Counted from the stretch's first letter, positions 1,277 through 26,745 are shown. The stretch is DNA of 32,000 nt from Nonlabens ponticola (GCF_003966335.1 NZ_CP034549.1:690001-722000); one strand, 5' to 3'. The notes: generated by a model not told the origin, from the letters alone. Translations and numbers: made by a program.

Positions 1277-2413
1277 ATGCTGCTAGAAAATCCTATTTAC
1301 ATTCATGATACGGCGCTGGTTTCACCATTGGGCGATACTGGTTTTGATTCTCATCAAACCAATTTTGCACAGCAAGATGATGTTCTGGTAGGTCGTATCG
1401 ATGATCAATTTAAACAAGAACTTGAGGTGCTTGTCAAAAAACATCCTAAGTATCGCAATCTCGACAGATCTACGTTGCTCGCTATTCTAGCCGCTAGAAA
1501 GTTGCAGATTACTGATGCACAAACGGCGGTAAATATAGGTAGCAGTCGTGGTGCAACGGGAATTTGGGAAGATGCGTATAGTAGCTTTCGCGAAAGCGGA
1601 ACAACACCAACGCAAACCTCACCACTAACAACATTAGGAAATTTAAGTAGCTGGGTTGCACAGGATTTAGGAACTATAGGAACCGCTTTTTCCCACAGTA
1701 TCACGTGCGCCACCGCTTCACACGCAGTGCTTAATGCTATCGCGTGGTTAAACGCAGGAATGGCAACCAGCTTTATCGCCGGTGGTGCAGAGGCGCCGCT
1801 TACTGATTTCACTATTAAACAGATGCAGGCGTTGCGTATCTATTCCCAACAATCTGCCGAGTTTCCTTGCCGTGCCTTGGATCAAAATAAGAATCAAAAC
1901 ATGATGATTCTAGGCGAGGCAGCGGCGTGTTTACTGTTGTCAAAAAAGCCTGTCAAAGGTGGTATCAAAATTATAGGATATGGTACCTCTATTGAGAAGT
2001 TACAATCAGCAACCTCAAGTAGTGCCGAAGGAATAGGATTCCGGCAATCAATGAAAGCCGCGATGGGTGAGTTGCCTAAAGAATCTGTCGATACTATAAT
2101 CACGCACGCGCCCGGAACTATCATGGGCGATAATTCTGAACTTGCTGCGATACGAGCTGTTTACGGCGATAATCATCCTAGATTATGTAATAATAAATGG
2201 CAACTAGGTCACTCGTTAGGTGCCAGTGCCGCGGTAAGCCTGGTTATGGCTGCAAGTATGCTAGATAGAGGTGTTTTTCATTCAATTCCTTATCTTGAAG
2301 AACGAGTGATTAATCCTAGAAACACGAATACTGATCCTAAACAGATTATGGTAAACGCAAGCGGTTTCGGTGGGAATTGCGTGAGCATCTTGCTGGAAAA
2401 AAGCCAACATTAA
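1277..2413 (+). CDS. beta-ketoacyl-ACP synthase (KAS I/II)-like condensing enzyme embedded in the biotin cluster
   Basis: A Cys-His-His triad can be recognised: active-site Cys in SITCATASHAVLNA, then THAPGT and KWQLGHSLGASAA. The first ATG is at 1277; the track start at 1265 is TTG. The gene lies 56 nt after bioA and 62 nt before bioB. Confidence 0.75.
   Translation: MLLENPIYIHDTALVSPLGDTGFDSHQTNFAQQDDVLVGRIDDQFKQELEVLVKKHPKYRNLDRSTLLAILAARKLQITDAQTAVNIGSSRGATGIWEDAYSSFRESGTTPTQTSPLTTLGNLSSWVAQDLGTIGTAFSHSITCATASHAVLNAIAWLNAGMATSFIAGGAEAPLTDFTIKQMQALRIYSQQSAEFPCRALDQNKNQNMMILGEAAACLLLSKKPVKGGIKIIGYGTSIEKLQSATSSSAEGIGFRQSMKAAMGELPKESVDTIITHAPGTIMGDNSELAAIRAVYGDNHPRLCNNKWQLGHSLGASAAVSLVMAASMLDRGVFHSIPYLEERVINPRNTNTDPKQIMVNASGFGGNCVSILLEKSQH
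1584..1597. repeat. iterated palindrome GCTTTCGCGAAAGC, copy 1 (inside the KAS-like CDS, read as S-F-R-E-S)
   Basis: Exact 14-mer. Its right flank GGAACA is identical to that of copy 6, giving 20 nt shared. Confidence 0.95.
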
Positions 2414-2475
2414 ACAACGGCAATAGCTAGATAATCGCATCACTTTTCTATTTTTACCTAACTATACCAACATTT

Positions 2476-24799: not shown

Positions 24800-26346
24800 A
24801 GTTAACAACAGTACAAGAACAACAATTAAAAGATCGTGACATACCGGTAAGCGCTATCGAGTATCAACTGAATCGTTTCAAGAATGGTTTTCCATTGGTG
24901 ACACTTGTTAGAGAAGCCACCGTCGGAGATGGAATAGCACGATTAAGTGATGAAAATCAATTGCGTTACAAGGAGCTTTATAGCTTTAGACAAAACGATA
25001 TAAGCATCACTAAGTTTGTTCCTGCAAGTGGCGCGGCATCCAGAATGTTTAAGTTTTTGCATGAATTCGTTGCTGCTTATGATTCAGATAAAGAAACCAT
25101 TGCGTCATATATTGAGCGTAACGATGCAGCTCTCGTCGAGAAATTTACCAATGGCTGGAAGAAATTTCCTTTTTCGAACATCGTATTAAAACATTGCCGT
25201 GATCTGTACGCTGACTGGAATGATCTATCTTTAGATAAACAGCAATTCTATTTTGCCAAGGCCATACTTGATAAAGATCAACTCAACTATAGCGGTATGG
25301 CTAAAGGTTTGGTACCATTTCATAATTACGGCGACCATATCGCAACAGCCTTTGAAGAACACTTGTACGAGGCTGCCAGCTATGCACCGGTAAACAACAA
25401 AGCACAGGTACATTTTACCATCGCACCAGATGCCCAAACAGATTTCAAAACAAATCTAGAACAGGCTAAAACTAAGGTCGAAAATGAAACCGGTGTAAAG
25501 TTAGATGTGACATTTTCTTTTCAAAAACCTAGTACAGACACTCTTGCGGTATCGCTAGATCTGCAACCACTTACTGATTCTAACGGTGAATTCATTTTGA
25601 GACCAGCCGGTCATGGTGCGTTATTACAAAATCTCAACGATCTCGAGGCCCAACTCATATTTATTAAAAACATAGATAACGTTGCTTCCAGATCAACAAA
25701 TAGTCAAACCAGCCACTATAAGCAAGTGATTGCAGGATTACTCATAGAATTGCAAGACCAGACGCACACTTACATACGAGCTTTACAGGAACAAAAATAC
25801 AAAACCACTTTAGAAAAAGAGATCGTTACATTTTTACAGCAATCGCTATCAGTGACTTTGCCAGATAGTTTTGAGAAATCGATACCGGATCACCGCAAAG
25901 AAACTCTTATTGCACTGCTCAATCGTCCAGTACGAGTATGCGGTATGGTCAAAAATCAAGGTGAACCTGGTGGCGGCCCGTTTTGGGTTAAGGAACCCAA
26001 TGGTGCCATATCATTACAAATTGTAGAGAGTGCTCAGGTAGATCCCAACGACAATGAGCAACAATCCATTGCAAGTCGCGGCACCCATTTCAATCCGGTA
26101 GATGTGGTTTGCGGTATGCACGATTACATGGGCAATCCATTTGACTTGAATGATTTCAGCGACCCAGATACTGGATTTATCACGACCAAATCTCGATTGG
26201 GCAGAAAACTTAAGGGTCAAGAATTACCAGGACTTTGGAATGGTGGCATGGCTTTATGGAATACGGTTTTTGTAGAGGTGCCATTAGAGACCTTCAATCC
26301 GGTAAAGACCGTGAACGACCTACTCAAACCTGCACATCAGGCATAG
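24796..26346 (+). CDS. DUF4301-type protein with UDPGP-family (UTP-sugar-1-phosphate uridylyltransferase-like) motifs
   Basis: 516 aa. Five blocks match motifs I recall from eukaryotic UGPase. These are KFVPASGAASRMF~KLNGGLGTSMG, RPAGHGAL~YPPGHGDI and IFIKNIDN~IFVSNIDN. The last two are GGGPFWV..ISLQIVESAQV~KGGTLT..LRLVEIAQV and FNPVKTVNDLL~FLPVKTTSDLL. The start overlaps the kinase stop (ATGA). Confidence 0.65.
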   Translation: MKLTTVQEQQLKDRDIPVSAIEYQLNRFKNGFPLVTLVREATVGDGIARLSDENQLRYKELYSFRQNDISITKFVPASGAASRMFKFLHEFVAAYDSDKETIASYIERNDAALVEKFTNGWKKFPFSNIVLKHCRDLYADWNDLSLDKQQFYFAKAILDKDQLNYSGMAKGLVPFHNYGDHIATAFEEHLYEAASYAPVNNKAQVHFTIAPDAQTDFKTNLEQAKTKVENETGVKLDVTFSFQKPSTDTLAVSLDLQPLTDSNGEFILRPAGHGALLQNLNDLEAQLIFIKNIDNVASRSTNSQTSHYKQVIAGLLIELQDQTHTYIRALQEQKYKTTLEKEIVTFLQQSLSVTLPDSFEKSIPDHRKETLIALLNRPVRVCGMVKNQGEPGGGPFWVKEPNGAISLQIVESAQVDPNDNEQQSIASRGTHFNPVDVVCGMHDYMGNPFDLNDFSDPDTGFITTKSRLGRKLKGQELPGLWNGGMALWNTVFVEVPLETFNPVKTVNDLLKPAHQA

Positions 26347-26745
26347 ATGGACGTGGACCAGCTACATAGAGAAGTCACCTATACAGCTACAACTTCCAGC
26401 GGTGCTGGCGGCCAACATGTCAATAAAGTTGCTACTAGGGTTCAGTTGGAGCTGGATATTTTAAATAGTTCCGCTTTCGCGAAAGCGGAACATCAAAGAA
26501 TCCTCACTGCACTTGAAAACAGGCTGACTAAAGATGGTAGGCTGCAATTGAGCTCTCAAGACACACGCAGCCAGGCGACCAACAAAGAGCGCGTATTCAA
26601 AAAACTACTCAAACTTCTGACTGCAGCGCGCAAACCAAAAAAGGTGCGCAAAAAACGTGTCGTGCCAGCACACATAAAGCGCAAACGCCTGAACGAAAAA
26701 AAGAAGCACAGCGAGAAAAAGGCTAATCGAAATTTCAAGTATTGA
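26347..26745 (+). CDS. arfB: alternative ribosome-rescue factor ArfB (GGQ peptidyl-tRNA hydrolase)
   Basis: 132 aa with the GGQ motif SSGAGGQHVNKV and a long K/R-rich C-terminal tail. Its ATG abuts the preceding stop (TAGATG). Confidence 0.9.
   Translation: MDVDQLHREVTYTATTSSGAGGQHVNKVATRVQLELDILNSSAFAKAEHQRILTALENRLTKDGRLQLSSQDTRSQATNKERVFKKLLKLLTAARKPKKVRKKRVVPAHIKRKRLNEKKKHSEKKANRNFKY
26468..26491. repeat. iterated palindrome copy 6, a 24-bp perfect palindrome GTTCCGCTTTCGCGAAAGCGGAAC (inside arfB, read as S-S-A-F-A-K-A-E)
   Basis: Exact core at 26473-26486 with symmetric flanks. Confidence 0.95.

Follow-up and report, generated by a model that had tools for sequence, protein, structure and literature searches.

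A clade-specific palindromic DNA word iterated through the genomes of Nonlabens and Dokdonia

The 14-nt palindrome GCTTTCGCGAAAGC recurs in a 32,000-nucleotide stretch of the Nonlabens ponticola chromosome (GCF_003966335.1, NZ_CP034549.1:690001-722000; hereafter the window, with positions counted from its first letter), where we found seven exact copies against 0.00 expected, and none in 100 of 100 dinucleotide-preserving shuffles of the window. It belongs to a DNA word that is specific to one clade, occurring genome-wide in the marine flavobacteria Nonlabens and Dokdonia at about one copy per 4 kb; in this descriptive conclusion our confidence is high. Our reading as a whole, which we consider probable, is that the palindrome is the invariant core of a clade-specific iterated word held in place by selection, whose duplex and flanks would be read by a host factor and which may serve as a tag for 'self-DNA'.

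Five of the seven window copies lie inside open reading frames (ORFs), between them using all three frames, and two are intergenic; the host genes of the coding copies were named by NCBIfam. An earlier note on this DNA, drawn up from the window alone, had claimed that the palindrome is embedded in-frame in five unrelated genes (KAS-like, mutY, GGGPS, arfB and recX) in three frames and that it has no stop codon in any of them; we recovered the same frames and peptides, and frame analysis confirmed the word to be stop-free. The word is also all-or-none: TTCGCGAA has seven matches in the window, every one of them within a full 14-mer. Besides the exact copies, the window holds one copy with a single mismatch (17639) and one relic with three (20520); the earlier note listed neither of these, nor the two intergenic copies. 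The GGGPS, ArfB and MutY proteins encoded in the window match their N. ponticola counterparts at 100% identity. The copies, and one example of the full element, are as follows.

1554..1627, full-element example: core plus about 30 nt per side; on the + strand C is scarce in the left flank and G in the right
1584..1597, exact copy in the KAS-like gene (1265-2413, + strand), read S-FRES; a gain specific to the lineage of N. ponticola
4795..4808, exact copy in recX (4673-5149, - strand), read LSRK
8346..8359, exact copy in mutY (7478-8539, + strand), read R-FRES, within the C-terminal domain's variable linker
12544..12557, exact intergenic copy with perfect arms of 11 nt, between the convergent genes for an EamA-type exporter (11590-12501, + strand) and an M16 peptidase-like protein (12579-14645, - strand)
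17639..17652, 1-mismatch variant GCTTCCGCGAAAGC in the L21 gene (17300-18016, + strand), read ASAKA
20520..20533, decayed copy ACTTTCGCATAAGC with three mismatches, adjoining the AdoHcyase gene (20580-21896, - strand)
22727..22740, exact copy in the GGGPS gene (22640-23368, + strand), read AFAKA
26473..26486, exact copy in arfB (26347-26745, + strand), read AFAKA, with 12-nt perfect arms
30892..30905, exact intergenic copy between an ORF (30571-30855, - strand) and ftsX (30996-31889, - strand)

Conservation, gain and loss of individual copies

In pairwise alignments with relatives, at 71-75% identity, the aligned palindrome sites were perfect in 10 of 13 cases, compared with 1.6-5.1% of all other 14-mers; by partner, this was 4 of 5 sites against Nonlabens sp. 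Hel1_33_55, 2 of 4 against N. agnitus, 3 of 3 against N. dokdonensis and 1 of 1 against BBFL7. Identity in the 10 nt on either side of the word was only 0.44-0.65, at or below background; a perfect core among such neighbours makes the word a frozen island at poorly conserved positions. The intergenic copy at 12544 has exact orthologous copies in Hel1_33_55, BBFL7 and N. tegetincola. For the copy at 30892 none was found at the orthologous position in a Nonlabens metagenome-assembled genome (MAG) locus, L037, which carries copies elsewhere.

Orthologs that share the encoded peptides, at about 60-75% identity, have identical nucleotides in the word, while their neighbouring codons differ at synonymous and non-synonymous positions; genera outside the clade have unrelated residues at the word positions, at equal length. 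The earlier note's inference of a constraint at the level of nucleic acid rather than protein therefore stands: the pattern that would have spoken for the protein, the same peptides written in other codons, was looked for and did not appear, either in Nonlabens, where the nucleotides are the same, or in the outside genera, where the residues are unrelated. Moreover, the codons of the word are minority choices in the N. ponticola genome (TTC 25%, GCG 17%, CGA 10% and TCG 7%), and this puts the probability of the observed codons, given AFAKA, at about 0.008.

At all five coding sites, local protein length is equal in orthologs with and without the word, and all five copies are substitutions and not insertions. 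In GGGPS, about 70 Nonlabens orthologs have AFAKA in the same column (the DNA word being exact in Hel1_33_55 and N. dokdonensis), and the N. ulvanivorans/BBFL7 group has unrelated residues in that column with protein length unchanged. The earlier note had left room for an insertion here. This did not hold up, as the extra segment of about 11 aa relative to other Flavobacteriaceae lies downstream of the palindrome and is found in all Nonlabens, including species that lack the word, and is thus unrelated to it. The note's suggestion of substitution in arfB was upheld: most Nonlabens orthologs read AFAK[A/G], ArfB has the same length as in Winogradskyella, and the DNA word is exact in N. dokdonensis. 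RecX and the KAS-like protein align without indels, xLSRKR of RecX to QLAEKK in the outgroup Christiangramia, and SFRES of the KAS-like protein to EFIKT/GFVKT in Hel1_33_55 and N. agnitus; the recX word has an exact orthologous counterpart in both Hel1_33_55 and N. agnitus. In MutY, FRES is found in about 70 Nonlabens orthologs, essentially all of them, within a hypervariable linker, and other genera lack FRES at equal length; the DNA word is exact in Hel1_33_55, N. dokdonensis, N. agnitus and N. tegetincola. Two MutY orthologs (P0292 and P0301) have a 10-aa Thr-rich insert, GITTTTLPIT or GITTTQLPIS, directly after FRES, an expansion of the word-adjacent flank with its favoured A/C-rich composition.

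The KAS site was acquired in the lineage of N. ponticola. At this position N. agnitus reads GC TTT GTA AAA ACC, which matches the word at 9 of 14 nt; five core bases changed and length did not. Downstream of the core, Q-V-P-V-Q-T became T-T-P-T-Q-T through two GTN to ACN changes that removed G, and upstream a C was lost. The flanks were thus recoded along with the core, indicating that the flank skew described below comes with it. N. ponticola is without an alpha/beta-hydrolase gene that relatives have between the KAS-like gene and bioB (window 1265-3567; locus L164 2781-6047; locus L166 1-3256), and the relatives' gene carries a copy of the word 39 nt into the gene. The lineage-specific KAS copy keeps a distance of about 3.2 kb to the recX copy, and may compensate for the site lost with the alpha/beta-hydrolase gene.

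Sites have also been lost. The arfB position in Hel1_33_55 reads GCTTTCACAAACCC, and the position orthologous to the relic at 20520 is exact in Hel1_33_55 and N. dokdonensis and has two mismatches in BBFL7. The variant GCTTCCGCGAAAGC in the L21 gene is unchanged in three Nonlabens species, including Hel1_33_55 and N. agnitus (window 17639-17652; locus L121 5431; L166 19459), and this unchanged inheritance argues against an efficient 'repair to consensus' drive; the variant may be tolerated or functional. It occurs a second time in L121, at 11838. The L21 gene (window 17300-18016; L166 19117-19659) has a long variable C-terminal extension, HHH_5 or Rho_N-like (180-243 aa by species), and it is inside this extension that the variant copy sits. 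At the N. agnitus ortholog of the 12544 copy (L166 14500-14540), a 21-nt insert, CTGCCTGCCGGCAGGCATGGC, divides the palindrome exactly at its centre and itself holds a perfect palindrome, GCCTGCCGGCAGGC, for which we found no further occurrence in the other loci compared.

Flanks, spacing and genomic range

The consensus extends to 16 bp, C-GCTTTCGCGAAAGC-G, with G at the first outward position (+1) in 83% of half-sites and A-rich positions at +3 and +4. Read 5' to 3' outward, both flanks contain 2-8% G against a background of 19%, with A and C enriched, and the G-C skew stays at -0.4 to -0.6 out to 25-30 nt before reaching zero by about 35 nt, in both Dokdonia and Nonlabens. Because the depletion of G is seen separately in the downstream sense flank and the upstream antisense flank of coding copies, and again around intergenic copies, it is no coding artefact. 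The architecture of the element at 1554..1627, a core with skewed flanks, is found around every copy; when the seven window copies are aligned with 60-nt flanks, nothing beyond the core is conserved, and the skew becomes visible only in pooled statistics. We rejected a longer hairpin element, as arms are as complementary between copies as within one (6.45 of 19 within a copy against 6.31 of 19 in the between-copy control). Overall, the element forms a symmetric signal spanning about 70-80 bp, with a skew that changes sign at the dyad. This signal is strand-symmetric and equal in intergenic copies, and RNA hairpins at the word are weak (see below), so the constraint is on DNA rather than on RNA.

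Copies of the word avoid each other, and their spacing is regulated. Across 32 gaps in six long regions, the coefficient of variation was 0.48, compared with 0.90 for random placement. In these regions a single gap was shorter than 1.5 kb where 10.6 were expected; for independent 8-kb blocks drawn from many genomes the expectation was 19.6 such gaps and the count 3. No spacing simulation was as extreme as the observed values. The gaps in N. tegetincola, 2.7-5.2 kb, are in line with even spacing.

With respect to genes, 69% of 155 copies lie in long open frames, compared with 90% of random positions, a threefold enrichment in intergenic DNA. Coding copies are read as AFAKA (57), RFRES (25) and LSRK (25), and their position within genes shows no significant bias (29, 15, 19, 18 and 13 by quintile). 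The genes around intergenic copies are convergent in 10 cases, divergent in 8 and in tandem in 30, which equals the background.

To establish the taxonomic range we scanned one genome per bacterial species for the 14-mer; the range given by the matches listed is a lower bound. Among the matches listed, most fell in Nonlabens, Dokdonia and Flavobacteriaceae MAGs, often with two or three copies per 8-kb block, and other taxa contributed single matches at chance level. The matches listed for the complete chromosome of Dokdonia sp. R86516 stand at 0.88, 1.38, 2.15 and 2.82 Mb, a spread indicating that the word is genome-wide and not local. Its density comes from seven long regions whose choice rested on gene orthology, independently of the word: the window, regions of Hel1_33_55, BBFL7, N. 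agnitus and N. tegetincola, and two regions of N. dokdonensis. These contain 44 copies over a total of 171 kb. In Winogradskyella maritima and Christiangramia aestuarii the syntenic regions, of 21 kb each, have zero copies, and a search of these 21 kb each for a 'dialect' found no other over-represented word. Flavobacteriaceae loci among the matches listed held 140 exact, 13 one-mismatch and 14 two-mismatch copies, a ratio of exact to one-mismatch copies of about 10:1.

The word also occurs in phage-like DNA. Forty IMG/VR stretches carry the 16-mer, and between 2 and 6 copies occur on each of eleven contigs, again with G at +1 and G-poor flanks. One uncultured Flavobacteriaceae phage contig, IMGVR_UViG_3300040781_000495 (loci L143, L160 and L163), has 6 copies in 37 kb, inside ORFs; at L160, three copies lie within phage ORFs, and the contig encodes a baseplate hub related to those of Flavobacteriaceae phages and a thymidylate synthase. 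Two isolated Nonlabens phages, P12024S (L167) and P12024L (L171), which are closely related and so represent one phage lineage, have no copy even at two mismatches, where about nine are predicted from host density. These siphoviruses have their own ERF/YqaJ recombination genes. The results from phage DNA are thus mixed. The freedom of these two phages from the word indicates that it is not an automatic result of replicating in these hosts; rather, the word appears to mark DNA that has long been resident in the lineage or depends on host functions.

Relation to known iterated words

Selected iterated genomic words are known as a kind; what is new is a 14-16-bp palindrome in Bacteroidota. Among the papers searched we found no prior description of the 14-mer or of an iterated palindrome in Nonlabens, Dokdonia or Bacteroidetes. 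Of the known classes, those with a comparable profile are the uptake sequences, Chi and HIP1, and the word stands nearest to HIP1 and to 'self' sequences of the uptake or Chi-like type. Words that are iterated to the point of overriding codon choice and amino acids are rare, and each of those described, namely the uptake sequences, Chi and highly iterated palindrome 1 (HIP1), pointed to a core DNA transaction.

HIP1 of cyanobacteria, GCGATCGC, is likewise palindromic, stop-free and hugely over-represented in three frames and in spacers of one clade (PMC5861425). Like HIP1, our word is a perfect palindrome present genome-wide in orders-of-magnitude excess, and its orthologous sites are conserved beyond control words and codon preference in coding and non-coding DNA. 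HIP1 is conserved whatever the frame and is non-random along the chromosome, with a periodicity at 10-90 kb (PMC5861425); it enhances transformation, with uptake-like and Chi-like components (bioRxiv 10.1101/2024.09.10.611283), and a role as uptake sequence across the phylum has been proposed (bioRxiv 10.64898/2026.06.24.733823). The two words nevertheless differ in sequence, length and host (8 bp in Cyanobacteria, 14-16 bp in Bacteroidota) and in density, HIP1 reaching more than one copy per gene where our word has about one per 4 kb. Instead of a 10-90 kb periodicity, copies of our word repel one another at the kilobase scale, and they have strand-skewed flanks of 25-30 nt. HIP1 has cognate orphan methyltransferases, whereas none is known for our word; nor did we find a restriction-modification signature, TCGCGA occurring outside the word 4 times in 32 kb against a composition-based estimate of about 4.6.

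The uptake signal sequences (USS) of Pasteurellaceae and DNA uptake sequences (DUS) of Neisseriaceae combine an exact core with weaker flank preferences, are genome-wide and common to related genera, and are absent next door. Our word has the same build, an exact core and a flank preference (+1 G and skew) that are common to Nonlabens and Dokdonia. Between 35 and 65% of USS/DUS lie in ORFs, at poorly conserved residues, and their intragenic copies, like those of our word, come about by substitution and in several frames (PMC2817400); even spacing has been noted for them (PMC1939737). USS/DUS are about 4 times denser than our word, and their uptake bias has been shown experimentally. Natural competence is known only from Riemerella, of a neighbouring family, where it goes with a preference for self-DNA (PMC7965970). 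The flank skew and the kilobase-scale avoidance are found in neither the HIP1 nor the USS/DUS published descriptions that we compared.

Chi occurs at about one per 4-5 kb in E. coli, mostly in genes, is lineage-specific, and acts as a 'self' signal for DNA-end processing. Our word has a similar density, is likewise mostly intragenic and is specific to its host lineage. On each strand its 5' flank is G/T-rich, which might match what a RecA-loaded 3' tail would consist of.

Possible function and competing explanations

Copies originate by substitution at tolerant positions, are under selection at the level of DNA, have symmetric skewed flanks and are spaced in a regulated manner. A copy arises in place by point substitution wherever the protein or spacer tolerates it, any frame being usable because the word is stop-free, and once present is held letter-perfect by purifying selection on DNA. 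In the mechanism that we propose, a factor with two-fold symmetry would read the duplex, and the flanks would be read strand-specifically, the strand leaving the dyad 5' to 3' being G-poor and the strand entering it G/T-rich. By analogy with USS/DUS, Chi and HIP1, the word would then act as a 'self-DNA' tag in uptake, in recombinational processing or in both, and one site per few kb would be what matters. We regard such a role as a self tag for uptake or recombination as possible, and hold it tentatively.

A more doubtful proposal is that the word and its skewed flanks form the site at which a novel symmetric DNA-processing machine of Bacteroidota recognises DNA and loads, a palindromic self tag for uptake or recombination that would be read from either side and whose sites would be spaced by a per-distance need; if true, no symmetric self-tag system would have preceded it in the phylum, and in mechanism it would be a sibling of HIP1. 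More radically still, a templated short-patch process might write the entire element, about 70 bp, in place. The mirror-image flank skew and the avoidance between copies are both quantifiable and together constrain any mechanism. The word is long and exact, and hence easy to trace, in a phylum without a known example; as Nonlabens and Dokdonia are culturable, its function is directly testable. A link to transformation or recombination would support the emerging view of HIP1 and provide a genetics tool for marine flavobacteria.

Several points weigh against the self-tag reading or temper the evidence behind it. USS/DUS are not palindromes, and Chi sites, which RecBCD/AddAB recognises, are 5-8 nt long, asymmetric and orientation-biased with replication, whereas our word is symmetric over 16 bp and, as a 14-16-bp palindrome, can have no orientation. 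Phage-like IMG/VR contigs carry the word at host-like density, which a pure uptake drive does not predict unless these phages are temperate. As to the spacing and gene statistics, the 8-kb blocks were picked because each contains a copy, there is partial orthology among the long regions, and the calling of ORFs was simple and crude. Finally, even spacing and strand-skewed flanks would suit a chromosome-organisation or motor-loading site equally well.

This last alternative, in which the palindrome would be bound by a dimeric nucleoid-associated, topoisomerase-type or SMC (structural maintenance of chromosomes)-loading protein and the spacing would reflect loop or domain organisation, is rather unlikely, and is the strongest of those that we considered. 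A palindromic core with symmetric flanks, strongly under-dispersed spacing and the conservation of sites in coding and non-coding DNA alike are what it would lead one to expect, and the periodicity of HIP1 offers a precedent (PMC5861425). Strand-specific depletion of G, however, is untypical of simple duplex binding. Sites of the parS, matS and Noc-binding-site (NBS) type, bound by ParB, MatP or Noc, number tens and form regional clusters, unlike our word, which at about one per 4 kb genome-wide amounts to an estimated 700 sites per genome at least, each exact over 16 bp. We know of no protein that binds the word, and sequence alone does not separate an architectural role from that of a self tag.

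It is improbable that biased repair or short-patch conversion, by turning near-matches into the palindrome, has produced the word neutrally and without function. Such a process would account for the large excess of exact over near copies, for the 9 of 14 matching positions from which the KAS gain began, and for arfB orthologs that are without the word and still start GCTTTC or GCTTTT. Yet sites stay where they are in orthologs, with no continual replacement; in three species a 1-mismatch variant has gone without repair, decayed relics exist, and the two isolated Nonlabens phages have no copy even at two mismatches. The mutual avoidance and the 25-30-nt flank skew would also be left unexplained.

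Very improbable, too, is an RNA-level element, an mRNA hairpin for ribosome pausing, RNase cleavage or transcription termination. The earlier note had proposed that each copy can fold as a hairpin, and this was right as far as the stems go (5-6 bp closing a CGCG loop, reaching 10 bp at arfB); plain copies, however, fold like shuffled sequence (z of -0.2 to -0.9), and although a small hairpin is always possible, and is strong at arfB, GGGPS and 12544, stability comes only with accidentally extended arms. C-rich, G-poor tracts are what Rho loads on, and the stretch following the hairpin resembles them; the threefold enrichment in intergenic DNA would also suit an RNA element. A one-directional transcript, on the other hand, has no need of a flank skew that is mirror-symmetric and includes the antisense side, and intergenic copies favour neither convergent nor downstream contexts relative to background. 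A search of Rfam for an RNA family gave no match. We rejected a terminator role specifically: flanks are A/C-rich and not T-runs, gene orientation equals the background, and a separate, canonical terminator-like hairpin with a 13-bp stem and T-run adjoins the 12544 copy (window 12483-12512, - strand) and is conserved in Hel1_33_55 and N. agnitus.

A miniature mobile element inserting in frame into genes is effectively refuted. Repeated palindromes in unrelated genes do recall such elements, as do the length changes beside some copies, namely the Thr-rich MutY insert and the 21-nt insert at the centre of the N. agnitus site. Repetitive extragenic palindromes (REP/REPIN, with RAYT transposases) are likewise short repeated palindromes present in hundreds of copies; they are, however, extragenic, imperfect, paired or clustered, and mobile, whereas copies of our word lie in genes in 69% of cases, are exact and solitary, keep an even spacing (a single one of 32 gaps in the long regions is below 1.5 kb) and are orthologously stable across the genus. 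Rickettsia palindromic elements (RPEs) lie in frame within unrelated conserved genes, as our word does; each is an insertion of some 100-150 bp, by which the protein gains a peptide segment. Unlike RPEs or in-frame miniature inverted-repeat transposable elements (MITEs), our word leaves length unchanged at all five coding sites relative to motif-free orthologs and belongs to no longer unit, with nothing conserved past about 16 bp and arms no more complementary within than between copies.

Protein-level convergence, with FRES, AFAKA and LSRK each selected as a peptide and the shared DNA a coincidence, would fit the conservation of these peptides at fixed positions in many orthologs, but its probability is practically nil: it is refuted by the identical, disfavoured codons that orthologs share, and one DNA word yields three unrelated peptides, 31% of copies are non-coding, the surroundings are hypervariable, and outgroups have unrelated residues. 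The word nonetheless imposes AFAKA, FRES and LSRK recurrently on many proteins, together with T/P/Q-rich or G/V/L-rich neighbours, which matters for alignment and annotation.

The intergenic copy at 30892 has one further feature, an extra half-site 7 nt further on (window 30892-30920), so that the locus reads GCTTTCGCGAAAGC TTAAAAA GCGAAAGT.

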